This document shows, piece after piece, positions 1-16,286 of a stretch of DNA of 64,000 nt. Positions within the stretch are counted from its first letter, which is position 1. The number at the start of each line of letters is the position of its first letter. Below the pieces are notes generated by a model. The model was not told where the DNA came from. It saw only the letters and a program-made list of their open reading frames with translations, and searched no databases. The position numbers and the translations under genes were made by a program. Source of the stretch: Saprospira grandis (lineage in GTDB: Bacteria > Bacteroidota > Bacteroidia > Chitinophagales > Saprospiraceae); assembly GCF_027594745.1 (NCBI RefSeq), contig NZ_CP110854.1, positions 988,241 through 1,052,240 on the forward strand, in the 5' to 3' direction.

Positions 1-51
1 TGCCAGCGATTTCAGTTGTTTTATGGTTTTTAGCGAACAAAATCGAGATTA

Positions 52-1332
52 TTGGAGACGCAGCAAGCAAAAGCCCCTCTTATTTGGGCCTTAGCGGCTA
101 GTTTGGGCAGTGGATTACTGCTGGCCTTTAGCCTTTCGACATATAGTATTCTATTGACGGCTTTCTTTGCCTTTATTCCTTTGCTTTGGCTTAGTAGAAG
201 GCAGAGCTTTTGGCCTTTTGTAGGCTTTAGTATCTTAAGCAACCTACTTACTTTTGGCCTCTTGGCTCCTCAGGCCATAGAGACTGCAAGCCTGCCTATG
301 GGGCTGTTTTCTTGGGCCTTTGTCAGTCTGTTGTTTAGTATTCCCTGGGCCATGCTTTGGCTGATTCATCATCGGCACAATGCCAAATTGGGCTATTGGG
401 CTTTTGTGAGTAGCTATTTGGCGCTGGAGTGGATGCAAGGGCAGTTTAGTGGACATTGGGCAGGTTGGCAGCTAGGAAGCTTGCCCCTGCTTTTTGGAAA
501 TAGTTGGCAGGCCTTAACGGTTGTGGGTACCGGGGGCGCTAGTTTATGGATCCTCAGTCTGAATATTCAGTGGTTTCGCTTTCTATTTCCGGCCCAAGCC
601 AAAAGTAGAAAAGGCGCTATTTGGGCCGGCATTCCTTTGGTCCTCCTTCCCTTTGTCCTCAGTTTGTTTATGGGGGCAGTGCAAAAGGGAGATTCGGGCA
701 GTTTTGTTTATCAGTCTAGCTACAAGAGCCAAAAGGGCCGCTTACTGCTAGGCCAAGCCCCCAAAGAAGAGATTCCAGAAAATGCCCTTTATGCCCAAGA
801 AAAGCCTTTAAATGGTTGGGCCTATTTGGCCGGACAAGATAGTTTGGGTAGCCTTCGGTTTTGGCAAAAAGGAGAGCGGCAGCCACTGAGTAGCCAAGCC
901 TTTTCTGTTCGGACCATTTTGGGGGTAGAGCAGCGCTTTTTTCAGTTTATCGATTGGCAGGGCTCTCGCCTACTCCTGCTCAATGCCCATAGCCTAAAAC
1001 GCACGGCCCCTATCCGAGAGGGCCTACAAAAAGGAGCACAAACCGTTATTGCCTTTAGTCCAGACAGCAGTTTATCGCCAGTTTTATACCGCTCGGCTAG
1101 GGCCCGTGCCCAAGAGAGTGGCAGCGATATTATTTTGGTCCAAAAAAAGAAAGCTCATCATTTTTCGGCCAATGGCGACTACCAAGCCCTAGAAGATGGC
1201 CAAACCTGCAGCCCTAAAATATGGTCCCCTACATTTTTTGCCCAATATGGCGATTTGCCTGGGCGATTGTCTATCTTTTTGGCGGCCTGGTTGGCTCTAG
1301 CCAGCATTGTCAAACCCTTCCGTAAAAAATAA
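52..1332 (+). CDS. Polytopic membrane protein. The N-terminal TM region resembles apolipoprotein N-acyltransferase (Lnt), but no clear CN-hydrolase catalytic motifs are seen.
   Basis: The 426-aa ORF begins with a TTG start and has multiple hydrophobic helices (LIWALAASLGSGLLLAFSL..FFAFIPLLWLS), as in Lnt N-termini. The C-terminal part is not recognisably a nitrilase fold. Confidence 0.45.
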   Translation: METQQAKAPLIWALAASLGSGLLLAFSLSTYSILLTAFFAFIPLLWLSRRQSFWPFVGFSILSNLLTFGLLAPQAIETASLPMGLFSWAFVSLLFSIPWAMLWLIHHRHNAKLGYWAFVSSYLALEWMQGQFSGHWAGWQLGSLPLLFGNSWQALTVVGTGGASLWILSLNIQWFRFLFPAQAKSRKGAIWAGIPLVLLPFVLSLFMGAVQKGDSGSFVYQSSYKSQKGRLLLGQAPKEEIPENALYAQEKPLNGWAYLAGQDSLGSLRFWQKGERQPLSSQAFSVRTILGVEQRFFQFIDWQGSRLLLLNAHSLKRTAPIREGLQKGAQTVIAFSPDSSLSPVLYRSARARAQESGSDIILVQKKKAHHFSANGDYQALEDGQTCSPKIWSPTFFAQYGDLPGRLSIFLAAWLALASIVKPFRKK

Positions 1333-1340
1333 TTTAGCTC

Positions 1341-2075
1341 ATGAGTATGAAAAATGAAGATATAGAACTCGAACAGGAGGTCCTTCAAGCAGAATATATG
1401 CAGGCTCAGCAACCTGCGCTTTTGGTCCTTTTGGCCCAAGGTATTTCTATTGTTTTCCACCCTTTTCTGATTTTGCTCTACGCCTTTGTCCTTTTGGCCT
1501 ATTGCAATCCCTTTTTGTTTCGGGTGAGTAGCTTTGCCGCCGTTTTCGAGAATAAGGTCAATAGTATGCTCTTTATTTGGTTGGCCATTTTCTCTTTTGC
1601 GGTCCCTCTGCTCACGGTTCTCATGATGCGGGCCCTCAATTTTGTCTCTTCCCTACAGATGCCTGGCCGCATGGAACGCATCGGCCCCTATATTGTGGTG
1701 GGCCTTTTATATATGGTCATTTTTGTCAATTTTAAAAATAATCCCGGCGTCCCTCTAGAACTAACGGCCTTTGCTTTGGGCAGTACGATTGCGCTGTTCA
1801 TCTCTTTTTTCTTCAATCTATTTAGCAAAATTAGTGTGCATACTACGGGCATGGGCGGCCTAGTGGCCATGACCCTACTTGCCGTGAGCAGAAGCTATGA
1901 TGGCCAGGGCTACTTGTTAGTTTGGGTGGTTTTACTGGCTGGTCTGGTGGGTACGGCCCGTCTGCTCCTCGGCGCCCATAAAACCAAGGAGGTTTATGGC
2001 GGCTATGCCTCTGGCTTTATGGGCCAAATGATCGCCTTTAATTATTTGTTTGCCACTGCTGCCGAACAGATGTAG
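1341..2075 (+). CDS. Integral membrane protein, possibly PAP2-like phosphatase
   Basis: The 244-aa protein has several TM helices. Weak PAP2-like motifs are present (SVHTTGMGG; RLLLGAHKTKE). It lies immediately downstream of the Lnt-like gene. Confidence 0.45.
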   Translation: MSMKNEDIELEQEVLQAEYMQAQQPALLVLLAQGISIVFHPFLILLYAFVLLAYCNPFLFRVSSFAAVFENKVNSMLFIWLAIFSFAVPLLTVLMMRALNFVSSLQMPGRMERIGPYIVVGLLYMVIFVNFKNNPGVPLELTAFALGSTIALFISFFFNLFSKISVHTTGMGGLVAMTLLAVSRSYDGQGYLLVWVVLLAGLVGTARLLLGAHKTKEVYGGYASGFMGQMIAFNYLFATAAEQM

Positions 2076-2087
2076 AGGGGAGCTCTG

Positions 2088-2340
2088 CTGTTTTGGGGCC
2101 TCCTGCCTACGGCAGGCGCTACGTTTCGCAGCTCGCAGGTCTGCTCGGCCCTTCGGCGCAAAGCGCCTCGGTCTGGCCTTCGGCCACTGCTGCACATCGC
2201 TAGGCCAGTCCTCCCTTCGGTCGTCCTCTAGCGCCTCTTTAAGGCTGCTTATTACAGCTCGCTGTTTGCCTTAAATTCCTTTGCTCGGCCTTAATAACTG
2301 CTGCACATCGGTTACTCCCTTTGGTCGTCCTCTAAGGCCC
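2088..2340. repeat. GC-rich composite intergenic hairpin repeat, family copy
   Basis: Contains the shared modules ttttggggcc, gcgctacgtttcgcagctcgc, gtctggccttcggccac and tgctgcacatcgctaggcc. Boundaries are approximate. Confidence 0.7.
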
Positions 2341-2365
2341 TAAACAAGCTGTACTTTTGGACCAA

Positions 2366-2410
2366 CAAAAAGCCCCCGCAGTCAGAGACTGCGGGGGCTT
2401 CCTTTTTGCC
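2366..2410. terminator. Bidirectional rho-independent terminator
   Basis: A perfect 13-bp GC-rich stem (agcccccgcagtc/gactgcgggggct) is flanked by A-runs and T-runs on both strands. It sits between the convergent genes ending at 2075 (+) and 2420 (-). Confidence 0.65.
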
Positions 2411-2419
2411 TTGACTAAC

Positions 2420-3984
2420 TTACCAAAGGCTCCACCATTGCTCCTCATCCTTTTGCTGAGGATCTATGGGGGTTAAGCTTTCTGCCAAACCAGAGCTGCC
2501 CAAATCTACGGCATTTGCTTCTGTTGTGGCTTGTTGTTTTTGGGCCTCATAAGCATATTTTTTGCGGCTAGGCTGAGCAAAATAGGCCTTCCAGGCTTGC
2601 TTGTTTTCTTCCTTGGCCAAAATGCGATCTACTTGCTCACAGAGCGCTTGGCCCTTCTCGGCCTGTACCATACGAACATAGTTCGCAAAACCCTTAATGC
2701 TGGCCAAAATAAATCCTTGGCCCCATTCTGCGGCTTGATAGCCTTTAGTTTCTATGGTATGCAAACAAGCTCTAAATTTCTTCAATGTTTTGCGGTCTAC
2801 AGCCACTTGCTCATTTACGGTAAGGCCCGTTACCTCTTGGCGGCGGCCCTTGCGCATAATCTTGAGCTTTTTGGGGTGAATCACAAAGCCTTCATCTTGA
2901 ATAATCTGCTGGGCCTGCCAAATTATACGGCTAATATTGCTCGTATCATTAGCCGAAAAACTCAGGTCATCGGCATAGCGGCTATAGGTCCAACCTAACT
3001 TTTTGGCTACCCCCTCAAAACGGCGGTCCATGCGGCGGCAAAGCCAGTTGGTAATCGCTGGACTAGTAGGTGCGCCCTGTGGCAAATAGCGCTCTCCCTT
3101 TTGGGCATAATACAACTGTCCGTCAATTTCTACTTGGTCCACCTCGGGCTCTGTAGTTAATAAGGCAAAGATAATAGACTGCTGCTCGGAGTAGCCCAAG
3201 CCCTTAAACATCCCCTTCACTCGAGGATAGGTTACGGTAGGAAAAAAGTCTTTGAGGTCCATATTGATGACCAGCTCTTTTTTCTCATGCAGTTTAGCAT
3301 TACTGACAATAGAGCGCTCTGGCACAAAGCCATGAGCCGCTTCATGCATCTCTAAGCGAGCAAGTACATTCTCTAAGAGCCAGTATTGGGCATTTTTAAG
3401 CATAGGGCGAGGGGCTGAAATCAGGCGTTTCCCTCCTGTTTTCTTGGCCAAATAAAAGCGCTCATAATGCGATACCGTAGAGAGCTTCCGCTGGAAACAA
3501 AGATAGCGCAAACGGCCCACAGAAATCTCCATAGCCTCTGCCAGCTCTTTAATATCTTTAAATGCAGGCAGATTTAAAGCCGCTAATTTTGCTAGATCAG
3601 CTTCTTCTTCACTCAAGCCAGCAGAATAGTCTTTACCCAAAAAGACAATACTCCGTTCTTTCTTTTCTTGCCAAGCCTTAGCGCGGGCTTCTTTCTCTGC
3701 CTTACGGCGCTCCTTGGTCTCCTCTCGGCGAGCCAAGGCATTCGCCATGCGTTTTTTACGCATTTCGGCCAGCATGCGCTCCTTATCTCGGAACATGCGT
3801 TGCTTCTCCATCAGCTCACGCAGCTCTCTTCGGAGAGCGCCCTTCTTTTGGATAATCTCCTCAGAGATTTTTGGAGCCTCTTCAGTGGTATCCCAAAAGC
3901 CGAGGCGTTTCATTTCTTCTAAGATATATTCCTCTTTAGAAGTTTGGCGGATACGGTCATAAATCTGTTGACGGGTCATTCTGT
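2420..3984 (-). CDS. Retron-type reverse transcriptase with an N-terminal K/E/R-rich coiled-coil extension of about 130 aa and a C-terminal extension
   Basis: The RT domain carries the YxxFxxxKKxGGxRxIxxP opening (ERFYLAKKTGGKRLISAPRP), NAxxH (SNAKLH), QGAPTSP, YADD (SRYADDLSF) and the retron-typical VTG motif (RRQEVTGLTV). I place the start at ATG 3984 (MSDHRMTRQQ). The 641-aa ORF to 4345 begins at a TTG and runs through a perfect palindrome, so I treat the upstream part as non-coding. Confidence 0.85.
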
Positions 3985-4348
3985 GGTCAGACATAGGGCG
4001 CAGATTGAGACAAAAAAAAACTACTTTCAATTTGGGAGAACTAAGGCCAAAGCCCAGTTGATCCAAAATTGAAAGTAGCTGCAAAAGAAAAAAGAAGGAG
4101 AGAAGATTTACTTCGTACAATCTTAGAACTAAGAGAATCAACTCCAGCGAACTGCCGTAGGTGCCCCTACTACGTTCCCTACAGAGTCTACGACTCGAAA
4201 CCGCGTAGGGGACGTAGTAGGGGCACCTACGGCAGTTCGCATCATAAAGATTCTTCCTTAGTGAACAGTGAAGAGTAATATCGCTTGAACGCCGAAACAG
4301 CGCTCTTTTTGCAAGACTTTGTCTTCTCTTGATCCTTCTTTTCAATAT
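3985..4348 (-). ncRNA. Candidate structured non-coding RNA leader of the RT, msr/msd-like
   Basis: There is a perfect 29-bp inverted repeat (4147-4175 / 4212-4240; gcgaactgccgtaggtgcccctactacgt) that extends to about 35 bp (ccctac/gtaggg). A second 13-bp stem-loop (4021-4033 / 4066-4078) is followed by a T9 run on the RT strand. An AT-rich promoter-like region lies at 4350-4450. The region is on the same strand as the RT and immediately 5' of it. Confidence 0.4.
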
Positions 4349-4477
4349 CTATATAGAGATGCTTGTCATCCCCATTTGTCTGTTACAATTATAGATATTC
4401 TTTAGCAGCTTGTCAAGTTTTTATTTAAATTTTTTCAAAAAATTATCAAAATAGTGAAGCTTTGGTCCTTTTTGCGG

Positions 4478-4621
4478 TAGACAGGCGGCGAAGCCGCCGC
4501 AGGCCTAGCGATGTGAAAGGGGGCGGCGAAGCCGCAGACCAAGGCCGTCAGGCCGCAGGGCCGAGCGAATAGCGAGCCCTGAAACGTAGCGCCTGCCGAA
4601 GGCAGGAGGCCCCAAAAAAAA
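4478..4621. repeat. GC-rich composite intergenic hairpin repeat
   Basis: Contains ggcggcgaagccgccgcagg, gcagggccgagcgaatagcgagcc, gaaacgtagcgcctgccgaaggcagg and ggccccaaaaaaaa. Confidence 0.7.
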
Positions 4622-4624
4622 TCG

Positions 4625-6292
4625 CTAGATCAGTTTTCCAGTTTTGCGATTATGAGCCATACGAGTAGCTAGGATATGTTCGCAGGGGCCTTTGCGCAAT
4701 TTATTCATTTGAAAATGGTTGCAATTGCATTCGGCTTGGACCATGCGGTCATCGGCATCGATGAGGAGTTGGCATTGGTAATTGCGCTGTTGTCCTTTGA
4801 TCTGTGCCGATAGTCGAGTTTGGCCATTTTGCTGCGACTCTGCCGATAAATTGCTGAGGCGGTTTTGGTCCAAAATCTTGTTGGCTTTTTCCTCCTGTGG
4901 CGAGGCAAAGCGGAGCAATTTCATATCGAGTGGTTCCCGATGCAATTCCCGCAGGCGGTAAACGCCTAGAGTAGGATCAAAAATCACTCGGCCCGCTTGG
5001 GTATAGGCTTGCAAGGAAGCGCTGACGATATCCGTACCTAACTCTAGGCGTTCGGCCAAGCTATCTACCGACTCGAAATAAGTGCTTTTGAGGGCCTCAA
5101 AAACGGTTTGTTTAGTCCAATCGTCTACCTCTAAGCGAGGGGCGAGCAGATCAAAATTGCCCGCTCTAGACCAATCGTTATCGGTCCAGCCAGAAAGACC
5201 CAAAGTAAAGACCATATCTCCCTCTAGTTGGGCCTCATAAAAAGAAGGCAAACCAGAGCCGAGGAAGCTAACCGTAAATTTTTTGGCTTGTGGAATCAGG
5301 CGCTCCAAGATGAGCAAACGGCGGCGGCCCCAAATGCGGACCTCCTCTGCTTTTGGCCCATGATAAATAGAGCGGCGACAGATAATTTCTTTATTCCAAG
5401 GTTCTACCAGCACTTTAACGGGCTGCCCGGGGCGAAGCTGAAAGCGCAAAGAACGAGGGCCATGCGTTTCCTTAAAGCGGCGTAAAAGCTGGCAAATGCT
5501 ATGAATGTCCATGGGATGCAAATCAAAGCGAATGAGTGGCATCGTCATGGCAGAGCTCACTTGGAGGAAGCCGCGGACCCAGCTTTCGGGTAGGTCAATT
5601 TTGACCTCCTTATATAAATCTTGGTCCTCTGTTTGGATTTCAAAGCCAGAAGGATCTACCCGAAAATCGGTTTCCTTATAATTCCGAATCTTTTGAAACT
5701 CATTATAAAGGGCTGCAGAGTAATCAATATTGGTTGTTCCGCAAGAAAACTCATCAATATTCTTAAAGACATTATAGCCACAGCTAAGCTTACCATAAGT
5801 AGATTCATCTTGGCTAAAGCACTCAAAGAAAATGCTATCGGGATGGGTCGTGATGACGGGATCTAGGACGATCCAAGCATCAAAATCCTTTTTATAGAGG
5901 TAATTAAAATACTCTCTTTGTTTTTTGTAGAAATGCTGCATTACGCCTCGTTCCTGCTCTTCTACCCCAGCCAATTCTACCGAAATATCTTCGATACGTT
6001 GTTTAATATTGGCCTCATCTCCAGCAATTTCGCCAAGGTATTGGGCCAACCAAACCTCTTCCTGCTCCTTGGCCCAGGCCAAATAGGCAGATTTATCACG
6101 AGGTTTGAAGCGAAGATCAGAAACCACTACGGCATTCAAGGCAGAGATGGCTTCTCTAAAGGCAATTTTCTTATGCAATTGGCCCACAAAAAAAGTAGGC
6201 TCGCGCAAACTATCGGGGGCAAAGGACATGGCCGTTTGCCCAGCTTTATTCTTCACAGAGGAAGTTCCTCCATACTTATAATTAAATAACAT
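4625..6292 (-). CDS. SWIM zinc-finger domain protein, YehQ-like
   Basis: The 555-aa protein has a C-terminal CxCx(n)CxH signature (CNCNHFQMNKLRKGPCEHILA). Only 11 bp separate it from the upstream WGR gene, suggesting an operon. Confidence 0.7.
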   Translation of the reverse strand: MLFNYKYGGTSSVKNKAGQTAMSFAPDSLREPTFFVGQLHKKIAFREAISALNAVVVSDLRFKPRDKSAYLAWAKEQEEVWLAQYLGEIAGDEANIKQRIEDISVELAGVEEQERGVMQHFYKKQREYFNYLYKKDFDAWIVLDPVITTHPDSIFFECFSQDESTYGKLSCGYNVFKNIDEFSCGTTNIDYSAALYNEFQKIRNYKETDFRVDPSGFEIQTEDQDLYKEVKIDLPESWVRGFLQVSSAMTMPLIRFDLHPMDIHSICQLLRRFKETHGPRSLRFQLRPGQPVKVLVEPWNKEIICRRSIYHGPKAEEVRIWGRRRLLILERLIPQAKKFTVSFLGSGLPSFYEAQLEGDMVFTLGLSGWTDNDWSRAGNFDLLAPRLEVDDWTKQTVFEALKSTYFESVDSLAERLELGTDIVSASLQAYTQAGRVIFDPTLGVYRLRELHREPLDMKLLRFASPQEEKANKILDQNRLSNLSAESQQNGQTRLSAQIKGQQRNYQCQLLIDADDRMVQAECNCNHFQMNKLRKGPCEHILATRMAHNRKTGKLI

Positions 6293-6303
6293 ATTGAGCT
6301 AGA

Positions 6304-9300
6304 CTAAGATTGAGTGGGATAATCATGAATCGCAATAGGCTGTTCGAGCAAGGGGTATTGGTCCTGCAAATCGCGTAGCACAATAACGGCCTGCTCCTTA
6401 TCGCCAATAGCTGCAGTGGCCGAGATAAAAGTGGCTAAATCAGAGAGGAATTGCGCTACTTCAAAAGAAGCTTTGGCCTCTTTGGCTAAAAAGCTCCAGA
6501 TGCGATCTTTGGCCATTCGGCCCTTGTTCACTTGGGCCAAAACCGTATAAAAATAATCGCGTAGCGATAGAATCCGCTCGGGATGTCCAGCCCCAAAGCG
6601 CTCCAAATAATTGGTTGCATACAGTTGTAGTTCTGGACGGGGGTGCTGACTCAATTGCTCCAAGTACATGGGGCCATCCTCTTCCTCAAAGAAACGAGTA
6701 ATGAGTTGGCGACCAAACTGCTGTACATCCTGGCGAACCGAATCGCAGATGCCCACCATCAGACTAGGGTTCCAATCATCAGCGGTATAGCTTTGGCCAA
6801 AGAAATCAAAGGCAAATTGTCGAGAATCGGCCCAATCTACATCTAGTAGACGCAAAGCCTCTTCTCTTTCGTAGCGCATACGATCTTTTTGTTCCTTAAA
6901 CATTTTCCAAGCGAGCTCGCGAACGGCTACAATTTCATGATTGGCCAGACGAACGGTATTCGCAACAGAAAGCGATTCATAAGGGATATAGCGATCAATT
7001 AAGACTGCGGCCAACTCTTGTGCGGGAGCATATTTTGCATTGAGCAGGCGGAAAATAAACTTCCGGTCTACCTCTGCCAAATGGCCCTCTAATTCGCTAG
7101 TTAAGATATCTGCAAAGAGCGCGTGCAAGCCCTCAATTTTTTCTTTGCGGATCAGTTTACGCAAGAGCGCTTGCATTTGCGCCACCGCAAAAGCTTGGTT
7201 TTGGGCATAGAGTGGGGCCAAAACTTCACGGCTGGCCAAGCGTACATCCTCTTCAGGATGCTCTAAAAGGCCCAAAAGAAAGTCGCCTTCTTGCAAGAGC
7301 TTCTGCTCTGAAGAGTGGCGGAGAAGTTCTAAGCCATAGCGCCAATAATCGGCTGTTTTGCCAAAGAGGTATTGAATATCTTCAAAGGGAATTTGTGTAG
7401 CGTCTGCTGCATGCCCCTTAAGCAAATGCAAACCGAAGGCTTGTTGCTGAGCCAAAGGCAAGCGTAAAAACTTCCCGATTAAATCTAGGCTGAGTTGTTG
7501 GGTTTCCTTGACAAAGTAGCGCTTCAGTAAGGACTCCACCTCTCTCATTAGGACCTGTTGATCTTGGCCCGAGCGGAGCAAGAAGCCCAGCAAACGGCCC
7601 AAGAGTGCTTGACGCTTGGCAGGTTCATAAACCTCCACGATACGTCCTAAGGCCTCTTGTGCCCAATTTCTCAAATCTTTGCGTTGGTGCAATAAAAGGC
7701 TATAGACCAAATCTAGATCGGCAAAGTAGTCAAAGAAGTCAGCTTCTAGCCAAGCCAAAGCCTGCTCTCTAGCCTTTGCATAATCATGGTCCAAAAGGTA
7801 AAGCAGGATAGCCGTAGGCTTGCCTGATTTTTCATAATTGGCCACAATTTCTTGCAGGGCCCAAGTTTGTAGGGGCTGATAAGAACGGCTCAGCAACTGT
7901 TTCCAGTAAGACAAGCCCAGTCGTTTTTGTAAGCTCTTGGCCTCGGGATGGGCCATAAATGCCGTATGGGCAAACTCTAGAACCTTTTGGCTTTTGGCCT
8001 CGGCCATCAAATGCAGAAAGGCCTTGGGCTCCTGCCGCCAAAGGTCGGCATATTTAGTTTCTGAAAAGGGGGCTGGCAAGGGCATATCTGGATCATAATG
8101 TTTGCCGTAAACCCATTCCTGTTTCATAGAAGAATAAACATATCGCTGACTATTGGCATAAAGAATCTCGTTAAAGATCAGCTCCTTAGAATAGCTAGGA
8201 TAATGATATACGCTGGCGATCCAGCGCTGTTTCTTATTATCAAATCGCCAGTTCTTTTCTCGGCGATCTGTGCGGCCATCTCGGCTATCATCATATTGAA
8301 GGAGGAGACTTGTGGCCATAGCGACATAAGCGATATCTCCCTTTTGTCCCAATTGGTCCAACTCTTTACGCATATAATCGCTAAAGTAGTCCTTAGTCAA
8401 ATTGGAGAAGGCCAGACGGCTATTTTCTTTGGTCAACTCATCTTTGGGCCGCATACGGTTATAGCTTACCCAAACATATTGATTATTTCTGCGGGGCATT
8501 CTATACTGCGGGCTCGCTTTTTCAAAGCGGTAGGCCAAGGCGCCCCAAAACTGTGCATCCTTGCGAAAGGTCGCCATTTTAAAGAGGCGACTCAGCAAAC
8601 GGAAGCTATTGGGTCGGAACTCCATTTCGCAAATGACCTCTACTAATGTCTTGCGACAATAGGGCATGGCCGGAGACAATAAATAAAGCATAGCAAATGC
8701 TTGCTCCATACTTTTATCTCCCTTGGCCTTGCGTAGCTGATAGGCCAAAGCATCATTATCTTTACGATCCAAGGCCTTTTGCCAGAGTTCAGGGAGTTTG
8801 GGCAGTTCCTCTTCAAGCAAAGCCTGTTGTCCAGCGGCATCGGCTAGTTCCCAATAGACAAAGGGCGCTAGTTTTTTAGCCGTAGGCGCTTTTTTCTTGC
8901 TTCGCCAAAAAGTTAATAAGTTGCTGGGGTCCTCTACTGCGGTATCGAGTTGAGCCGTAGCCCAAAGTAGGCTATAGAGCTCCATATCGTCTATAGATTT
9001 GCCTCTATGGTTTTGCTCAAAAAGGGCCCAGCAATAGGGTCCAGCCGCTTTGATGTTAAGACTAGCGGCACGCCAAGCGACCCTAGACAGCTTCCAGTTG
9101 CGGGCCTTTTGGGCCGCTGGATCTAGTTGAGCGAGCTGTAAATGGTAGAGGATCCAGGCCGCCTGAGCTTCTGCTCCTTGCAGGGATTTATCTGGGGGCT
9201 GAATAGCCGCCACTTGCTTGGCCTGACTCTTTTCAGATACATCCAAATAGCCCTTTTTCATTTTATCCTGTAGCAATTTATTGTACAGACTGCGGGCCTT

Positions 9301-9480
9301 GGTTTCATCTACAGGCGTGGGCGTTTTGCTGCCCTCTCTTAAAGGGCCGCCCGTTTTTCCATAACGGAAATTAACTAGAAAGGCCCCTGCTTCCAATTCG
9401 CAAAGGTCTACTTCATATACTTTATCAGAATTGCCCTGCTTAAAATGCAGGCGCTTTTGTTCTATTAGCTTCATCGGCAA
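6304..9480 (-). CDS. WGR-domain / DUF4132-like large protein of the MolR/YehI family
   Basis: The 1058-aa protein has an N-terminal WGR domain (KVYEVDL..FLVNFRYGKTGG..ARSLYNKLLQDKMKKGYLDV) followed by a long alpha-helical body typical of DUF4132/MolR-like proteins. Confidence 0.7.
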   Translation of the reverse strand: MPMKLIEQKRLHFKQGNSDKVYEVDLCELEAGAFLVNFRYGKTGGPLREGSKTPTPVDETKARSLYNKLLQDKMKKGYLDVSEKSQAKQVAAIQPPDKSLQGAEAQAAWILYHLQLAQLDPAAQKARNWKLSRVAWRAASLNIKAAGPYCWALFEQNHRGKSIDDMELYSLLWATAQLDTAVEDPSNLLTFWRSKKKAPTAKKLAPFVYWELADAAGQQALLEEELPKLPELWQKALDRKDNDALAYQLRKAKGDKSMEQAFAMLYLLSPAMPYCRKTLVEVICEMEFRPNSFRLLSRLFKMATFRKDAQFWGALAYRFEKASPQYRMPRRNNQYVWVSYNRMRPKDELTKENSRLAFSNLTKDYFSDYMRKELDQLGQKGDIAYVAMATSLLLQYDDSRDGRTDRREKNWRFDNKKQRWIASVYHYPSYSKELIFNEILYANSQRYVYSSMKQEWVYGKHYDPDMPLPAPFSETKYADLWRQEPKAFLHLMAEAKSQKVLEFAHTAFMAHPEAKSLQKRLGLSYWKQLLSRSYQPLQTWALQEIVANYEKSGKPTAILLYLLDHDYAKAREQALAWLEADFFDYFADLDLVYSLLLHQRKDLRNWAQEALGRIVEVYEPAKRQALLGRLLGFLLRSGQDQQVLMREVESLLKRYFVKETQQLSLDLIGKFLRLPLAQQQAFGLHLLKGHAADATQIPFEDIQYLFGKTADYWRYGLELLRHSSEQKLLQEGDFLLGLLEHPEEDVRLASREVLAPLYAQNQAFAVAQMQALLRKLIRKEKIEGLHALFADILTSELEGHLAEVDRKFIFRLLNAKYAPAQELAAVLIDRYIPYESLSVANTVRLANHEIVAVRELAWKMFKEQKDRMRYEREEALRLLDVDWADSRQFAFDFFGQSYTADDWNPSLMVGICDSVRQDVQQFGRQLITRFFEEEDGPMYLEQLSQHPRPELQLYATNYLERFGAGHPERILSLRDYFYTVLAQVNKGRMAKDRIWSFLAKEAKASFEVAQFLSDLATFISATAAIGDKEQAVIVLRDLQDQYPLLEQPIAIHDYPTQS

Positions 9481-9713
9481 AAGGATAAAATGGGCTTTTT
9501 AGGGCCTTGGTCTTAATTTGTAGCTCATATTATCGCTTTTTGATGACATTAGCGAGTTTTTTAAGCAAAAAAAGGGGATTTTTTCTTACTGCTTAGAAAA
9601 AGAAAGGCAAAAAATCGAAAGGCTGCTATATTTAGCTTCTAAGCGCCTATAGTTAAACTGTAGTAGGGTCGGTCCAGAAAAAAAAGATAGTACATTCTAG
9701 ATACGCCCGGAGG

Positions 9714-10030
9714 AGTTTTGCATTTGCAAATTAGCTCTGAACAACTGTATAGAGCTGTTTTGCATTTGCAGATTAGCTCCGGGGATTCCCCAGAGCTGTT
9801 TTGCAGTTGCAGATTAGCTCTGAACAACTGTATAGAGCCGTTCTGCAGTTGCAGATTAGCTCTGAACAACTGTATAGAGCTGTTCTGCAGTTGCAGATTA
9901 GCTCCGGGGATTCCCCAGAGCCGTTTTGCAGTTGCAGATTGCCTCTGAACAACTGTATAGAGCCGTTTTGCAGTTGCAGATTAGCTCTGGGGATTCCCTA
10001 GGGCCGTTTGTAAGCTGCAGCAGTGCCCTA
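9714..10030. repeat. Tandem array of about 7.5 units with a period of about 42 bp: a 23-bp core plus two alternating 19-bp inserts
   Basis: The core gttttgcagttgcagattagctc alternates with tgaacaactgtatagagcy or cggggattccccagagcy. The inserts are not unique, so this is not a CRISPR array. Confidence 0.8.
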
Positions 10031-10094
10031 AGCTCTGGTTTTTGGCCTATTTGTGGCTGAAGAGCTAGGCGATACGGTTGTTTCTCTCTAAAAA

Positions 10095-10362
10095 AACCGC
10101 CAACAGCTCCCCTGAGGGATTCCTTAGGGAATCCCGAGGAGGGGCGGGTGGGCGGGGTCGTGAAAACGAATGAGGAGCGCAGCGACGAATACCGCTTTTT
10201 GCGAAGGCCCGCAGGGCCGCTGAGGGCCCAGCGCTGCGGAGTGGGTGGCCGAAGGCCAGACCGAAGCAGGCGAAGCCTGCGCAGGGCCGAGCGAGCAGCG
10301 AGCCCCGCAGCATAGCGGCGGCCGCCCGCCCTTTTTGGGGCGGCCGCGGGCCCCAAAAACAT
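10095..10362. repeat. GC-rich composite intergenic hairpin repeat
   Basis: Contains the agggattccttagggaatccc palindrome, gtggccgaaggccagaccgaagc, gcagggccgagcgagcagcgagcc and ggccccaaaaac. Confidence 0.7.
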
Positions 10363-10463
10363 AAAAATCAAAATAAACTTTCCTTTAAATCATAACAGAA
10401 TGCCCGCATCCCTTTGACGATTCTGTATCTTAGGAGCTCATTCAGCAAAACAAACCATCGCTT

Positions 10464-11696
10464 ATGCGTCAACTTATTTCATGGGCCTTTGTCCTGGCCC
10501 TACCGGCTTGTCTTTGGAGCCAAGACCTTGGTCAAGAACTGCAAAAACTAGAAGCCCAAAAGCAAAGCCTAGACGAACAAAAAGCCGCCCTTATTGAGCA
10601 AATTGAAAGCGTCCGCCTACAGAAGATTCGAGCCGACTTGAAAAAAGTAGGTTTGCCAAAAAATGGCGTAGCAGGGGAACTGGTAGAGCATGCCGCCATG
10701 ATTCTGAACTATTCCGAGGCCCATGAACAGGCCGCTTGGGTGGCCCATATTATTCCGCCTGCCATGATGGAAGGCAACCTGAGCCGAACCAATGACTTTA
10801 GAGCAGATGAGCTAGTCAGTACAGGAACGGCGGTAAAAGCCGACTACTGGTATAGTGGTTATGACCGTGGGCATTTGGCCCCTTCTGCGGATTTCCGCTG
10901 GTCCAAAACAGCCATTAGTGAGTCCTATTATTACTCTAACATGAGCCCCCAATTGCCCGAATTTAACCGAGAGGGCTGGGCCGATTTGGAGCGCTGGGTC
11001 CGAGGCGCTGTCTTTTCTCACAAACGCTCTATGTTGGTCATTACTGGCCCTATTTTGAAAGAGGGCTTGCCGCAAATTACGCAAGGCCCCAATAAAGTGA
11101 GCATTCCCGAAGCCTTTTTCAAGGTGGTTTTGGACCTAGAGGCCGAGCAGCCCAAGGCTATCGGTTTTATCATGAAAAATGGCAGCTGCAACAACCCCAC
11201 AATCAGCTATGCCGTCTCGGTAGATGAGGTAGAGGCCCAAACGGGCTTAGATTTCTTTAGCAATTTGCCCGAAGAGGAAGAAAAACGCCTAGAAGCCATG
11301 AAGGACCCTTCTAGCTGGGAAAAAACGACGGAAGGTCGCTTGGCCGATGTTCCTCCCCTCAGCAATGAGGAATTGCCCAAAGATTGTATCAGCACCGCCG
11401 ATGCCCCCGTCTTTATGAACCAAAAAGCCTGCGTTTGCGGCACGGTCGTATCCACCAAGAAAACCAAGTCGGGCTCTGTCTTTATCAATCTGGACACAAA
11501 ATTTCCCAACCAGATTTTTTCCGTAACCATCTGGGGCAAGGACATCAAGCATTTTTCTTATTCGCCAGAGACGGAACTCTATGGCAAGCAAATTTGTGTA
11601 AAGGGGAAAATTACAGATTATAAAGGGACCCCAACCATGAATATCACTCATGAAAAGAAGGTGGAATTTATGGAGGAGATGCCAGATAAGAAGTAG
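10464..11696 (+). CDS. Secreted DNA/RNA non-specific endonuclease (Serratia NucA family) with a C-terminal extra domain
   Basis: A signal peptide is present, and the DRGHLAP active-site motif with the ..NMSPQ..FN motif (N of the catalytic Mg site) is seen. 410 aa. Confidence 0.85.
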   Translation: MRQLISWAFVLALPACLWSQDLGQELQKLEAQKQSLDEQKAALIEQIESVRLQKIRADLKKVGLPKNGVAGELVEHAAMILNYSEAHEQAAWVAHIIPPAMMEGNLSRTNDFRADELVSTGTAVKADYWYSGYDRGHLAPSADFRWSKTAISESYYYSNMSPQLPEFNREGWADLERWVRGAVFSHKRSMLVITGPILKEGLPQITQGPNKVSIPEAFFKVVLDLEAEQPKAIGFIMKNGSCNNPTISYAVSVDEVEAQTGLDFFSNLPEEEEKRLEAMKDPSSWEKTTEGRLADVPPLSNEELPKDCISTADAPVFMNQKACVCGTVVSTKKTKSGSVFINLDTKFPNQIFSVTIWGKDIKHFSYSPETELYGKQICVKGKITDYKGTPTMNITHEKKVEFMEEMPDKK

Positions 11697-11697
11697 G

Positions 11698-11872
11698 ATT
11701 TGGGGCTGCCCCTCGCCTATCGGCTCGGGTCGGGCCATTGCGCAGCTCGCTACTCGCTCGGCCCTGCAGGCTTTTTCGCTTCGCTACAAAAGCCTTTGGT
11801 CTGCCGCCTTCGGCGGCCCTGCTACAGCCCCTCAGCCTGCGGCCCTTCGGGCCTGTCCCATCCAAAAAAATC
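11698..11872. repeat. GC-rich composite intergenic hairpin repeat
   Basis: Contains ttggggctgcccctcgc, cgcagctcgctactcgctcggccctgcagg and cgccttcggcggccctgc. Confidence 0.65.
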
Positions 11873-11882
11873 AATCCATCGC

Positions 11883-12689
11883 ATGAATTACCAAGAACAA
11901 TTTGCGGCCAATAAGGCTGTTTGGGAGCAAAGAGCGGCTTTGCATCCAGAAACTGAGTTTTATCAGCAAGATGCTTTTATGCAAGGGCAAACGAGTCTGC
12001 AGTCTATAGAGCTCTCCTTATTGGAGGCCGACTTATCGGGCAAAAGAGTCTTGCACCTACAATGTCATTTTGGGCAAGATAGTCTGTCTTTGGCCCGTAT
12101 GGGCGCAGAAGTCGTGGGCCTAGACCTCTCCGAAACCGCCATTGCCAAGGCCCAAAGCCTAGCCAAAGCGCTCAATCTCAATGCCCGTTTTTACCAAGGC
12201 AATGTACTAGACGCTCAAGAGATTTTGGCCCAAGAAGCCCCCTTTGATCTCATCTTTTGTTCTTATGGGGTCGTCTATTGGCTGCCCGATCTGCTGCAAT
12301 GGGGCCAAGAAATAGGGCCCTTACTCAAAAAAAGCGGAGAATTTATGCTGGTCGAGTTTCACCCTATCGTCTGGATGTTTGATGACAACTTTAGCTATAT
12401 CCAATATAGCTACTTTGACCAAGGTGCTATTGAAACCGAAGAGGAGGGCAGCTATGCCAAGCGAGAAGCCGAGATCTCAGGAAAATCTTATGGCTGGAAC
12501 CACAGCCTTTCCGAAATGACCGCTGCCTTAACCGAAGGCGCAGGCTGGCAACTCAGTTACCTCAAAGAATATAAGTTTTCGCCTTACAATTGCTTTAATA
12601 ATACCGTAGCTCACCCCAAAGGCTATCAAATCAAAGGCCTAGAGGATAAAATCCCTATGGTGTTTGCTTTGGGGGCCAAACGGCCCTAG
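11883..12689 (+). CDS. Class I SAM-dependent methyltransferase
   Basis: The motif-I region VLHLQCHFGQDSLSLARMGAEVVGLDLSE is present. I place the ATG at 11883 because the longer ORF from 11700 runs through the repeat element. Confidence 0.8.
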   Translation: MNYQEQFAANKAVWEQRAALHPETEFYQQDAFMQGQTSLQSIELSLLEADLSGKRVLHLQCHFGQDSLSLARMGAEVVGLDLSETAIAKAQSLAKALNLNARFYQGNVLDAQEILAQEAPFDLIFCSYGVVYWLPDLLQWGQEIGPLLKKSGEFMLVEFHPIVWMFDDNFSYIQYSYFDQGAIETEEEGSYAKREAEISGKSYGWNHSLSEMTAALTEGAGWQLSYLKEYKFSPYNCFNNTVAHPKGYQIKGLEDKIPMVFALGAKRP

Positions 12690-12697
12690 CGAAAATG

Positions 12698-12740
12698 CAA
12701 AAAGGGGCAGTCGCCAATGGCGACTGCCCCTTTTCTATTG
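12698..12740. terminator. Bidirectional rho-independent terminator
   Basis: The hairpin ggggcagtcgcc-aatg-gcgactgcccc carries flanking A-runs and T-runs. It lies between convergent genes. Confidence 0.65.
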
Positions 12741-12753
12741 GGCCAAAAATGAT

Positions 12754-13518
12754 TTAGTTGGCTAAGCCCACAATCAACTCTTGGTCAATACTCGCCTTTT
12801 CTGTAGGCAACTTATTGATTTGGACCAATTGCGTCATTGTCAGGCCGTACTTTTTAGCAATATCATAAAGATTTTCGCCTTGTCGGACCACATGCACCTT
12901 ATACTTCTTCCCTGATTTCTCATCGGTGCGGATATAAGGATTGGGATCTACATAACTTCCATCATTCACCACCTTAATTCGGCGGCCTCTATCAATAGTA
13001 GTCGAGTTTAGGCCATTGAGCCCCATGAGAACATCTACTCTTGTATTATATTTCTCGGCAATCTTATAGAGATTATCATTCTCTTGCACGATATAATAGT
13101 TAGGGTCATTATTGACCACAGCAGGCGTTTTTTCGCTTGTTTTCTTATTGGCAGAGCCCGCTTGTTTTTTTGTTTCGGCAGGGATGGGTTCTTCATCAAA
13201 AGGAGAGCGTAGTCCACCATGCATGACCCCCTTTCGAGCTTTTTGGTCTTCGGCAGAAGTCACTCCAGCTCTTTTCTTTTGCTCATCGGCTGACTTAGTT
13301 CCTCGGCTAGCGATACCATTTTCCTCCTGCATTTTTTGGTAGCAGACCGCTCGAATATGTTCGGGGATTGTTTTTTTGTCTATTCTTTTCAGTTGGAGGC
13401 TACCATTTGCTTGTTGGACCAGATAAAGCCCAATTCCCTCTAAGAAATAGAGATTTTCAGAAAGGCGGGCTTGCAGGCGGTCAAAAGAGCGAAACTGTCG
13501 CTGTTTGAGGCAGCCCAA
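12754..13518 (-). CDS. LysM-domain protein with two LysM repeats
   Basis: Two LysM-like segments are present: YYIVQENDNLYKIAEKYNTRVDVLMGLNGL and YKVHVVRQGENLYDIAKKYGLTMTQLVQINKL. The start is a TTG, and there is no ATG upstream in frame. Confidence 0.75.
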   Translation of the reverse strand: MGCLKQRQFRSFDRLQARLSENLYFLEGIGLYLVQQANGSLQLKRIDKKTIPEHIRAVCYQKMQEENGIASRGTKSADEQKKRAGVTSAEDQKARKGVMHGGLRSPFDEEPIPAETKKQAGSANKKTSEKTPAVVNNDPNYYIVQENDNLYKIAEKYNTRVDVLMGLNGLNSTTIDRGRRIKVVNDGSYVDPNPYIRTDEKSGKKYKVHVVRQGENLYDIAKKYGLTMTQLVQINKLPTEKASIDQELIVGLAN

Positions 13519-13644
13519 TTGGTCATTATCTACAAAAAGGACCTTTCCTTCAGGGGTAGCGTCTAGATCTTCGCCGCTATTGATTTGGTTGGCGGCATAG
13601 ACAAAGCTATGTCGGCGGTCCTTATAACTCAGTTGCTTATCATT

Positions 13645-14055
13645 TTAGGTATAGCTAGCAATCTGGCTCACCTGATGAATATGATAGCGTTTTGTTTGTT
13701 CATTATAAACGGCAATATTCACTGATTTTTTCAGGCTATTGACCTCTTGAATAAACTGCCCATTGATACTAGTTAGATCTGCACAGCCTAGGGCCTTTTG
13801 GGGAAGAGCTTCTAAGAGTTCGGCATTCAGGTTAGTGGTCTTTACCCTAAAGGCTAGCTTTTGTTTTGGGGAAACTTGCAACATAAAATCATGAAAGGCC
13901 GATTCTGTATATTTATCGACAGCCTGATATTCATATTCTTGCATACAATTGGCATCAAAAAGCAGAATATTTTCGCTAGAGGTTTGGGCTTGGGCGAGGC
14001 TAGCGCCTAGGGTGGCGGCAGCCAATAAAAAGGATTTCCAAAGACGTTTTTTCAT
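13645..14055 (-). CDS. Secreted hypothetical protein
   Basis: A signal peptide (MKKRLWKSFLLAAATLGASLAQAQ) begins at the internal ATG 14055. Confidence 0.6.
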   Translation of the reverse strand: MKKRLWKSFLLAAATLGASLAQAQTSSENILLFDANCMQEYEYQAVDKYTESAFHDFMLQVSPKQKLAFRVKTTNLNAELLEALPQKALGCADLTSINGQFIQEVNSLKKSVNIAVYNEQTKRYHIHQVSQIASYT

Positions 14056-14084
14056 AGTGCTAATTTTGTATGTGATGGGGAACT

Positions 14085-14729
14085 TTAGCTTAGCCAAAGC
14101 AGGCGAAGCCAAAACAATAAACCTGAAATAATTAGGCCAAAGCTAGCGACCCAACGTATTCGCTTCAACCAAAGTTCATTTAGCAATTGGCGGAGTCGGC
14201 TGGCCAGAAAAACTTTTAAAAAGTCGGTTAGGATGACCATCAGCATAATGGCCACACCAAAAAAGACGAGATCGGTTTGGCTGTAGCCTCTGCTGTAGGC
14301 CGTCCCGATACTAGTGAACCAAAAGAAGAGAGGAAAGGGGGTTAAGCTGTTAATTAGAAAGCCTTGTAGAAAATACTGTCCCGCTTGCTTATTGCTCAGG
14401 GGTTCTTCCTTTGTTTTGGCTTTGGGCAGGGGGCTAAACAGCAGCAACAGGCCTAAAAGAATAAGAAAAGCGCCGCCGCCTAAGCTCAGGTAAAACTCTA
14501 GGTCTTGCCCTAACTCACTTTCTTTGGTCCAAGAAATTAAGAACTTTGCTAAATAGCTACTAATACCAATATAAATAAAATCGCTGATCCATTGGCCAGC
14601 CACTAGAGCAATTCCTGAGCGACTGCCTTTTTCTATACTCACTTGTAGAATAGTAAAGAAAATGGGGCCGGTCATGATGCTAAGTAATAGGCCGAGGCCC
14701 AAACCTTCCAGAATCGCTTGCGTGAGCAT
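14085..14729 (-). CDS. LysE/RhtB family amino-acid exporter
   Basis: A 6-TM protein with the LysE-type N-terminus (GLGLLLSIMTGPIFFTILQVSIEKG). Confidence 0.8.
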   Translation of the reverse strand: MLTQAILEGLGLGLLLSIMTGPIFFTILQVSIEKGSRSGIALVAGQWISDFIYIGISSYLAKFLISWTKESELGQDLEFYLSLGGGAFLILLGLLLLFSPLPKAKTKEEPLSNKQAGQYFLQGFLINSLTPFPLFFWFTSIGTAYSRGYSQTDLVFFGVAIMLMVILTDFLKVFLASRLRQLLNELWLKRIRWVASFGLIISGLLFWLRLLWLS

Positions 14730-14877
14730 TATTAACTACTTTAATATAGATGATAAAAAAAGGGGAAGGGATGTATCGTTGCGCAAAGGTAGGCTTGTTT
14801 TCAGCTTTCCTTTGCCCTCTTTAGCAAAAAGGGATCAAAAAAGTTTGTTAAAAAAGCAGATTTTGGCCCAATTGCGT

Positions 14878-15031
14878 CTAGCAGGCGGCAAAGCCGCCGC
14901 AGGCTGAGCTGCCTGTAGGGGGGCCGAAGGCCAGACCGAAGGCGAAACGAAGTGTAGCCTGAAGGGCCGAGCAGAACTGCGAGCCCGAAAGGGAGCGACC
15001 CGAGCGAAGCGAAGGGGTAGCCCCAAAAAAA
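14878..15031. repeat. GC-rich composite intergenic hairpin repeat
   Basis: Contains ggcggcaaagccgccgcagg, ggccgaaggccagaccgaaggcgaaacgaagtgtagcctgaagggccgagcag and ccccaaaaaaa. Confidence 0.7.
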
Positions 15032-15035
15032 TCAT

Positions 15036-16286
15036 CTAGTTCTTATCTAAGGAGAAAAGCTGCCAATCATCATTTTTGCTTCGGCGATAGAGAAAATTCT
15101 TGCGGGGGCCCAGCTTAAAATGATAATCCTTGAGCGGGGCACATTCGCCCTCATGGTTGCATTCGTAATAAATGGGCAGGTCAAAGACCTGGATGCGCCA
15201 GGGCCCCTCTTTTTGTTCCTCGCAAAAATAAAGGGCCGTTTTTTGGCTATACTCCTCAAAATTTACGGCCACAAACAGGCAACTCAGTCGGCCATTTTTC
15301 TTGCGCCAAATCACGGTAGATAAGCCCTCTAGGGTAGAGAGTTGAGGCAAAAGAACCTGTTGTTTATCGGCATTAAAATCATAGAGTCGAAACTCATTGT
15401 GGGGATGGTCCATATACAGCAAATAATGCCCATCATTGGAGAGTGAAGTGATGGGCGAACAAAGCAGGGCATCATGAATATTTTTGGGCATTTTGATCAC
15501 ATGCCCCGCTATATCCTCTATAATATAAGCCTTGCAACCCTCCTCATGAGCCACCACCTCAAACAGGCGTTTTGCCCCCTTAAGTTTACCCACAACGCCG
15601 GCCTTATGGGCCTCTTCCTCCTCCTCATGCACATCTTCATCTAGGACTTTCTTAAACTCCTCAATGCCCTTATCCCAGCTAAATTCTAGCAAGTGATTAT
15701 GTCGGCCCTCAATGGTGCCACGCAGCAAAATATTGCCCTCAAAAAACTCTGGGGTCACCAAATAATCAATCCGCCTTTCGTGCAAGGGCAGGCCATATTT
15801 TTGGTCAAAAGAATCTACATGTTCCCACTGTTGTTGCAAGGGGAAGCTAAAAATTTCTTCTTGTCGAAGCGTATCAAAGGGATAGCGAAAAATGACCAGC
15901 TCCTTGCCCTGATAAGAGAGGTCAAAATCATAGTGCAAATAAACCAAGAGCTCCAAATTGCCGTCATAGGTCACATCCTCAAAATGCAGTTCTGTAATTT
16001 TGGCCTTTTGCTTATGCCTAAGAGAAATATGATGGCTATGCTCCCGAGCATTTTCGGCCCGAAACAAATAAATGGCCGGCAATTTATGCACCTTATTATA
16101 GGCCACCAACCAATGGTGCTCACTATCCTGCATCACCTGCTTAATCCCAATGCCCAAAGTATCTTTCAAGCGAAACTCTTTTTGAGCTCGCTGCTTGGCC
16201 TCGGCAATACTGAGCGAAAGCGGAGCATCACAGGCCCAAAAACTGCAAAAAAAGAGGCCAAAAACAAGATAATATAGAAAGCGCAT
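15036..16286 (-). CDS. Secreted hypothetical protein, 416 aa
   Basis: A long ORF with an N-terminal signal peptide (MRFLYYLVFGLFFCSFWA). No recognisable catalytic motifs. Confidence 0.6.
   Translation of the reverse strand: MRFLYYLVFGLFFCSFWACDAPLSLSIAEAKQRAQKEFRLKDTLGIGIKQVMQDSEHHWLVAYNKVHKLPAIYLFRAENAREHSHHISLRHKQKAKITELHFEDVTYDGNLELLVYLHYDFDLSYQGKELVIFRYPFDTLRQEEIFSFPLQQQWEHVDSFDQKYGLPLHERRIDYLVTPEFFEGNILLRGTIEGRHNHLLEFSWDKGIEEFKKVLDEDVHEEEEEAHKAGVVGKLKGAKRLFEVVAHEEGCKAYIIEDIAGHVIKMPKNIHDALLCSPITSLSNDGHYLLYMDHPHNEFRLYDFNADKQQVLLPQLSTLEGLSTVIWRKKNGRLSCLFVAVNFEEYSQKTALYFCEEQKEGPWRIQVFDLPIYYECNHEGECAPLKDYHFKLGPRKNFLYRRSKNDDWQLFSLDKN

Follow-up and report, generated by a model that had tools for sequence, protein, structure and literature searches.

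The locus described here lies on the minus strand of a 64-kb window of a Saprospira grandis genome (64,000 nucleotides (nt), contig NZ_CP110854.1, positions 988,241 to 1,052,240; coordinates below count from the first letter of this window) and is, we are confident, a complete type XIII retron of this strain. Three long open reading frames (ORFs) follow one another there, 6304..9480, 4625..6292 and 2420..4345, and computation recovered a reverse transcriptase (RT) of the retron clade, an msr-msd noncoding RNA (ncRNA) directly upstream of the RT gene, and both of the accessory genes that define type XIII. All four parts (a WGR + HEAT gene, a SWIM gene, the ncRNA and the RT) stay together in several phyla. 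A preliminary description of the window, made from its letters, had proposed that an RT joined to a WGR/SWIM module would be a new arrangement; the association is instead the one published in 2020 as retron type XIII (PMC7736814), for which dedicated PADLOC profiles match the proteins over their full length.

Identity and conservation of the cassette

Each of the three proteins matches a one-system PADLOC profile from end to end and by a wide margin. In PADLOC-DB, the first protein scores 1020 bits against WGR_XIII (protein residues 3-1056, profile positions 1-972 of 973), the second 768 bits against SWIM_XIII (profile positions 1-506 of 509), and the third 625 bits against RT_XIII versus 309 for the next-best profile. 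Mestre et al. (2020; NAR 48:12632, PMC7736814) define type XIII as a clade-10 retron RT linked to a cluster 114_1 protein, in which a central Dx7[D]x4Ex30-32Dx37E ('DEDE') motif is combined with a winged helix and, at the C-terminus, a SWIM finger of the form CxCx12CxH, and whose gene usually follows that of a cluster 216_1 protein combining a WGR-like domain with HEAT/ARM repeats. Comparison of the locus with this written definition, point by point, finds the DEDE motif, the winged helix, the CxCx12CxH finger and the preceding WGR-HEAT/ARM gene; the assignment of the RT to clade 10 is based on the profile match. The features of the locus are as follows, in the direction of transcription.

6304..9480, minus strand: WGR + HEAT/ARM-type alpha-solenoid gene, accessory gene 1 (Mestre cluster 216_1, PADLOC WGR_XIII)
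4625..6292, minus strand: SWIM zinc-finger gene, accessory gene 2 (Mestre cluster 114_1, PADLOC SWIM_XIII)
~4470..4620, no strand assigned: GC-rich hairpin repeats, REP-like (16 dispersed copies in the window)
4388..4416, minus strand: predicted sigma-70-type promoter (12/12 consensus match)
4089..4343, minus strand: retron ncRNA (msr-msd), 255 nt (fold, covariation, covariance model)
4012..4080, minus strand: terminator-like hairpin, then U9 (fold energy, arm complementarity)
2420..3994, minus strand: retron reverse transcriptase, likely 524 amino acids (aa) (PADLOC RT_XIII, Pfam RVT_1)
2370..2400, no strand assigned: bidirectional intrinsic-terminator-like hairpin directly after the RT stop (14-pair stem, T-runs on both strands)

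The type is thus far from new: it stands in the 2020 classification and in PADLOC, and DefenseFinder reports it too. Its named members are Retron-Mxa1 (Mx162), Mxa2 (Mx65), Sau1 (Sa163) and Nex2 (Ne144) (PMC7736814), and they include the first retrons ever found, Mx162 and Sa163. In a 2026 metagenome survey, type XIII was the third most abundant of the groups and the most widely spread phylogenetically. As the type is already catalogued and the literature searched contains no study of its function, the finding correctly rediscovers a known system with an unexplored mechanism. As a possible new RT-associated system the finding matters little, and its remaining value is indirect; as a clean and compact representative, with one ncRNA unit and a readily recognised promoter, the locus offers a convenient experimental entry point.

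The two accessory genes were recovered at the coordinates that the preliminary description had given, 6304..9480 (1058 aa) and 4625..6292 (555 aa), with the same 11 bp between the WGR stop and the SWIM start, and the pair probably forms a single operon. A deposited S. grandis entry, 'WGR domain-containing protein [Saprospira grandis]', shows 100% identity to the WGR protein, and its length of 1056 aa points to the ATG at 9474 as the start. The 641-aa reading of the third ORF (2420..4345) was rejected as a mechanical TTG-to-stop translation. Profile matches set in at ORF residue 117, and translation probably starts from the ATG at 3994, giving 524 aa; the apparent coding sequence upstream of this ATG is structured ncRNA. 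Inspection of the RT finds Pfam RVT_1 (E 1.5e-23) and the retron NAxxH, YADD box and VTG motifs as NAKLH (232), YADD (340) and VTG (388), preceded by a charged N-terminal extension of ~140 aa, a trait also of the Mx162, Mx65, Sa163 and Ne144 RTs (2019 retron review, PMC6868368). With regard to the host strain, the locus of S. grandis DSM 2844 matches at 96-99% protein identity.

To follow the linkage of these genes, we searched with the RT only, in one genome per GTDB species and blind to gene neighbours, and obtained 16 loci; 15 of them carry WGR, SWIM, spacer and RT in the same order and on the same strand. The case that the preliminary description had named as fatal to a system, that WGR-SWIM pairs in related genomes never stand beside an RT, was tested in this way and the opposite was found. 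Loci found from an accessory protein give the order HEAT protein, SWIM, RT in Desulfonema ishimotonii, WGR-HEAT, SWIM, RT in an acidobacterial metagenome-assembled genome (MAG), and a permuted RT, WGR, SWIM in Eisenibacter elegans, with homology confirmed by tblastn at all three. A covariance model of the ncRNA core, described below, detects the RNA in the RT-seeded linked loci and in Desulfonema, Eisenibacter and the acidobacterium. Since the linkage survives gene-order permutation across four phyla, the trio is functionally linked, and these observations support the WGR, SWIM and RT genes as a functional unit, not a chance neighbourhood. Flanking genes are common to the Chitinophaga loci, and no flanking ORF is shared with Chitinophaga or among one another by the Saprospira, Flavisolibacter, Terrimonas and Trichodesmium loci tested; because the flanks differ between genera, what is conserved is the cassette and not its neighbourhood.

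Relative to the Mx162, Mx65, Sa163 and Ne144 retrons, the Saprospira locus shares the RT profile, the N-terminal RT extension and signs of vertical inheritance, a long msd hairpin within an a1/a2-flanked ncRNA of ~250 nt, a SWIM protein with DEDE motif, winged helix and CxCx12CxH, and a WGR + HEAT/ARM gene before the SWIM gene. It differs from them in its host, which belongs to the Bacteroidota (Saprospira) and is not a myxobacterium; in the interval from the SWIM gene to the ncRNA, which contains a dispersed GC-rich repeat and a separate, predicted strong promoter; in the terminator-like hairpin that separates the ncRNA from the RT; and in its multicopy single-stranded DNA (msDNA), which is, in contrast to that of the known members, predicted only.

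The retron RNA and the spacer that carries it

The ncRNA folds with a minimum free energy of -126.3 kcal/mol (z -12.6), and its parts are laid out as expected of a retron.

4322-4343, minus strand: a1, pairs with a2
4287-4305, minus strand: short msr hairpin (predicted fold)
4128-4262, minus strand: long msd stem with a 36-bp near-perfect core (4147-4182/4205-4240)
4089-4106, minus strand: a2, pairs with a1

Alignment of the Saprospira spacer with those of 14 other loci (Chitinophaga, Flavisolibacter and Terrimonas; 15 loci in total) shows invariant blocks, for example CTGGAGTTGATT and GCACGAAG, flanking a hairpin whose sequence changes while its pairing is kept. The RNAalifold consensus of these loci has 58 pairs, 33 of which contain compensatory double changes, compared with 6-12 when the partners are slid by 1-3 columns; standard pairing likewise holds in 96.8% of cells, versus 33-45% in the slid versions, and none of 500 shuffles attains any of the observed pairing measures. 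A covariance model built on the 139-position msd core recovers the window ncRNA at 4110-4269 (E 3e-23). An Rfam scan of positions 1-12000 (E<=1) returned no retron, group II intron or other family, giving only chance microRNA-family matches on both strands of the msd palindrome; the scan is uninformative, because this ncRNA is not represented in Rfam. One 2026 preprint counts type XIII among the types without an identified msr-msd, a listing that sits oddly with the table of Mestre et al. and with the clear ncRNA of the Saprospira locus.

The preliminary description had placed the WGR-SWIM pair immediately upstream of a structured leader and the RT on one strand, and the minus-strand order WGR, SWIM, ncRNA, RT bears this out. 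It had also filled the interval between the SWIM stop and the RT with a GC-rich repeat element of about 640 bp and a promoter-like AT-rich stretch. The length of that spacer stands (632 nt), but the single GC-rich element does not, for it resolves into a repeat of ~150 nt, a promoter, the ncRNA and a hairpin. The core of the repeat, GGCGGCGAAGCCGC, has 16 copies at <=2 mismatches in the window versus 0.66 expected, and is missing from the spacers of the 14 Chitinophagaceae loci, which are shorter (312-467 nt). The element looks like a genome-dispersed, REP-like intergenic repeat of Saprospira that was inserted into the spacer and is not a part of the retron. Other positions of the repeat are 14884, 23028-23062, 24508, 26911-26946, 35875, 43696-43766, 46413, 54048, 56796, 58123 and 62292.

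Downstream of the repeat, the sole 12/12 consensus promoter match within 2200-10000 (TTGACA-17-TATAAT, at 4416-4388) lies ~45 nt upstream of a1 and probably drives an ncRNA-RT transcript. As the ncRNA-RT half has a predicted promoter of its own, it need not be co-transcribed with the WGR-SWIM half. Between a2 and the RT start codon, 18 nt before the ATG, stands the hairpin at 4012-4080, which has 17-nt arms that are 94% complementary, an RNA fold of -29.3 kcal/mol (z -5.95) and nine U after it. This element may serve as an attenuator, such that most transcripts would end after the ncRNA and yield more ncRNA than RT mRNA; it is not conserved in the Chitinophagaceae spacers. The hairpin at 2370-2400 (14 pairs, 10 of them G-C, with T-runs on either strand) is the likely 3' end of the retron unit.

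In retrons generally, the ncRNA folds so that a1 pairs with a2, the 2'-OH of a G at the inner a1 end serves as primer for the RT, and the DNA copy of the msd remains joined to the RNA by a 2'-5' linkage (PMC7736814, PMC6868368). By analogy, the promoter at 4388-4416 would transcribe the Saprospira ncRNA and RT, a1 and a2 would pair, and the RT would prime from the 2'-OH of the G at the inner a1 end, for which the xAGC context described in PMC6868368 suggests the G at ~4323 as a candidate. Copying of the msd stem would then give a branched msDNA, predicted at roughly 150 nt, that would fold into a long hairpin with a duplex stem; the complement of 4107-4265, folded as single-stranded DNA, reaches -53.2 kcal/mol (z -14.8). 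For Mx162, the primary transcript is 241 nt and the msd 162 nt (PMC6868368).

Where the Saprospira window has one msr-msd unit, relatives have arrays of 2-4 units adjoining a single RT. Tandem copies of the msd core number two in Eisenibacter elegans (2293-2798) and two in Desulfonema ishimotonii (10468-10878), and the acidobacterial MAG has four (11895-12848), corresponding to 3.8 tandem copies of a 256-nt unit (all in locus positions). The units of the acidobacterial array are near-identical in their msr-like and basal msd sequence. They diverge in their flanks, which on visual inspection form unit-specific a1/a2 inverted repeats in two of the four, and in a mid-stem segment of ~12-14 bp of the msd, where pairing is maintained. 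The mid-stem segment (helix 6) is also the part that varies most between species. We found no description of tandem msr-msd arrays in type XIII loci in the literature searched; Lampson and Rice (1997) reportedly saw msDNA-like chromosomal repeats in Nannocystis exedens.

Accessory proteins and possible function

The first accessory protein has the N-terminal WGR domain that had been read from its translation (Pfam WGR at residues 11-83, E 2.5e-5). Its body had been likened to DUF4132, for which Pfam gives no match even at E<=10; the body is a HEAT-type alpha-solenoid, with Pfam HEAT matches that fall below threshold. The AlphaFold (AF2) model is confident (mean predicted local distance difference test score (pLDDT) 88.6) and consists of a WGR beta-sheet (1-80), a solenoid (100-320), a mixed alpha/beta insert (334-456) and a second solenoid (476-1039); Foldseek against the PDB returns generic HEAT solenoids only (SF3B1, CAND1, karyopherins and PP2A-A). 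The WGR domains of PARP enzymes contact DNA ends and breaks, and HEAT solenoids are scaffolds.

In the second protein, the C-terminal SWIM finger noted earlier is likewise present (Pfam SWIM at residues 505-542, E 1.1e-5), with the motif C522-N-C524-x12-C537-E-H539. The acidic motif reads D144-x7-D152-x4-E157-x32-D190-x38-E229, its last gap (x38) being one residue longer than in the published motif (x37), and the five acidic residues and four zinc ligands are invariant in 32 SWIM homologues (59-75% identity). Mestre et al. read the DEDE site as transposase-derived and as a nuclease (PMC7736814). The structural model is weaker than that of the WGR protein (pLDDT 63.9; residues 240-555 good, 1-234 poor). 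It shows the winged helix, and the predicted layout comprises N-terminal helices, a PCNA-like two-domain clamp fold (~140-370), the winged helix (~380-450) and the SWIM finger. The invariant DEDE residues map to the first clamp-like domain, which is the low-confidence part of the model.

The top 50 Foldseek matches of this model are all clamps. Sequence identity to the DNA sliding clamps (PCNA, 9-1-1, the bacterial beta clamp and herpesvirus processivity factors) is 6-13%, and, unlike in these proteins, the predicted clamp fold shares its polypeptide chain with a winged helix and a SWIM finger, with half of the region at low confidence. A sequence profile of the SWIM family, searched against PDB sequences, found no clamp, its best match being a marginal one to FANCL (E 0.35), and the literature search found no paper on a clamp-like retron protein. 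The clamp fold is thus a lead from modelling, not a result, that gives a concrete testable hypothesis. Clamp folds and winged helices bind duplex DNA.

Characterised tripartite retrons (Sen2/St85, Eco1/Ec86, Ec78 and Eco8) share with the Saprospira locus an RT, an msr-msd ncRNA and one or more accessory proteins, and the logic proposed for them is that the msDNA-RT complex restrains an effector until it is perturbed by phage. On this analogy, the WGR domain would, judging from domain content, bind the msDNA-RT particle; the SWIM protein, with its putative clamp fold and winged helix, would bind it as well, and the HEAT solenoid would act as a scaffold. Phage disturbance of the msDNA complex would then release an effector activity, for which the most plausible site would be the invariant acidic site of the SWIM protein that Mestre et al. 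read as a nuclease. We advance such a WGR- and SWIM-bound, phage-responsive particle tentatively, at somewhat less than even chances.

Several points weigh against it. Whereas the effectors of the characterised retrons are recognisable enzymes (N-glycosidase/NDT, ATPase + HNH, OLD nuclease and Toprim), the Saprospira accessory proteins are without a known catalytic domain; a toxin or enzyme domain is recognisable in neither of them (Pfam at E<=10, NCBIfam). The production of msDNA, the priming G, the promoter and the contacts between proteins and msDNA are predictions only. The literature searched holds no test of any type XIII retron for phage defence or another phenotype, and no functional or structural study of the type XIII accessory proteins. 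Nor is there a defence island in the flanks that we scanned, which comprise nine ORFs (1-2075 and 9898-16286): the nine proteins give no strong defence match, only a generic methyltransferase and one weak match, and their Pfam assignments are Endonuclease_NS, methyltransferase, LysM, LysE or nothing. The cassette stands in conserved synteny within Chitinophaga, and its parts are unlinked in both cyanobacterial loci examined. Lastly, identity across phyla is 57-63% for the SWIM protein (44-54% for the RT and 28-34% for the WGR protein), which is unusual for a fast-evolving defence effector.

Several of these observations fit a different role, in which type XIII is a domesticated, vertically inherited system that serves host DNA/RNA metabolism or surveillance instead of abortive infection. 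The SWIM protein, through its clamp fold, would load on the duplex stem of the msDNA, the ends of which the WGR-HEAT protein would read. The conserved synteny in Chitinophaga, the ordinary flanks, the Pfam search that found no toxin domain and the slow divergence of the SWIM protein between the Bacteroidota and the Desulfobacterota, Cyanobacteria and Acidobacteria all point this way, as would the PCNA/9-1-1-like fold predicted for that protein. Mestre et al. moreover noted a correlation with host 16S and suggested vertical inheritance and possible domestication (PMC7736814), and the myxobacterial members have been described as vertically inherited (PMC6868368). Set against this role, however, the retron types tested so far all act in phage defence, according to the literature searched; the hypervariable stem segments and multiplied ncRNA units of relatives look like diversifying selection; and the clamp fold relies on a model with a low-confidence first clamp domain. 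We consider a domesticated role unlikely overall, while giving it real weight.

A more specific version of the clamp idea strikes us as improbable. Type XIII would here be built on a PCNA/9-1-1-like clamp protein, extended by a winged helix and a SWIM finger, that engages the duplex msDNA stem while the WGR-HEAT protein reads ends; the short hypervariable stem segment, which in some lineages is multiplied into arrays of 2-4 complete msr-msd units, would be a specificity element, the RT-only locus and the WGR-SWIM-ncRNA locus of the two cyanobacteria examined might be halves of one system acting in trans, and the system would not work by toxin-antitoxin-style abortive infection. If this were true, the Saprospira locus would be a compact, single-unit example suited to testing it.

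Cyanobacterial loci, alternative origins and flanking genes

The two cyanobacterial loci bear on whether the retron and the accessory pair belong together. In Trichodesmium erythraeum IMS101, an RT that is 47% identical (locus positions 9983-11449) sits beside RNase III and housekeeping genes, and permissive tblastn and unfiltered cmsearch find no WGR, SWIM or ncRNA within 10 kb. In a Rivularia MAG (locus positions 7001-12225), WGR and SWIM genes are followed directly by one ncRNA copy (E 2e-15), with no RT within the 17-kb locus (7 kb on either side of the WGR gene). These two loci give hints that the system is split in cyanobacteria, with the ncRNA travelling with the accessory pair.

The preliminary description had cautioned that the RT might be an independent insertion, that is, a self-contained ncRNA-RT retron set by chance beside an unrelated, autonomous WGR-SWIM module. 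The perfect promoter of the ncRNA-RT half, the dispersed repeat between that promoter and the SWIM stop, the Rivularia pair without an RT and the Trichodesmium RT without a pair would all be accommodated by such an event. Yet the pair recurs in the same order at 15 of the 16 RT-seeded loci, the trio is kept in Eisenibacter despite a different gene order and is seen again in two further phyla, and Mestre et al. reported co-evolution of the RT with accessory proteins, including the WGR-HEAT protein (PMC7736814). Furthermore, the Rivularia ncRNA adjoins the SWIM gene, indicating that the WGR-SWIM pair is tied to the retron RNA even where no RT is its neighbour. Chance juxtaposition is therefore very improbable: as a general explanation the caveat gives way to the neighbourhood data, and what survives of it is that the ncRNA-RT half has a predicted strong promoter of its own at this locus.

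The pairing of WGR/DUF4132 and SWIM proteins that the preliminary description had named for enterobacterial yeh loci is borne out in Escherichia coli K-12, where YehF (WGR), the yehH pseudogene, YehI (DUF4132), YehL (MoxR), YehP (VWA) and YehQ (SWIM) lie on one strand. This overlap in domain vocabulary would suit a relative of the yeh cluster (YehF, YehH/molR, YehI, YehL, YehM, YehP and YehQ, with WGR domains in YehF/YehH and a MoxR ATPase in YehL) that had recruited an RT, an origin to which we assign next to no probability, as kinship is contradicted at the level of homology: DUF4132 is unmatched at E<=10, in BLASTP neither the WGR protein (compared with YehI and YehF) nor the SWIM protein (compared with YehQ) reaches an E-value below 0.1, and hhalign of a 32-sequence SWIM_XIII profile with YehQ aligns 28 columns around the finger at a probability of 0.8%. 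The YehI/MolR/YehQ likeness first proposed thus comes down to the Cys/His finger. The two loci share co-directional WGR- and SWIM-domain proteins, with no detectable homology outside these small domains; the yeh locus is without an RT and an ncRNA, and its DUF4132, MoxR ATPase and VWA proteins are without a counterpart in the Saprospira locus and scanned flanks, where none of the nine ORFs has a MoxR/AAA+ or VWA match in Pfam and five match no Pfam family.

Just upstream of the retron, on the plus strand and 3 bp apart, lie an Endonuclease_NS gene (10464-11696, E 1.8e-50) and a gene for an S-adenosylmethionine-dependent methyltransferase (11700-12689), the latter with a weak PADLOC 'mad2' match. 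No link between this pair and the retron was seen, and the flanks are not shared between genera. In the acidobacterial MAG, an additional gene with WGR and beta-propeller domains (PQQ_2 / Beta-prop_ACSF4 matches; locus positions 5505-6995) stands immediately upstream of the WGR-HEAT gene.

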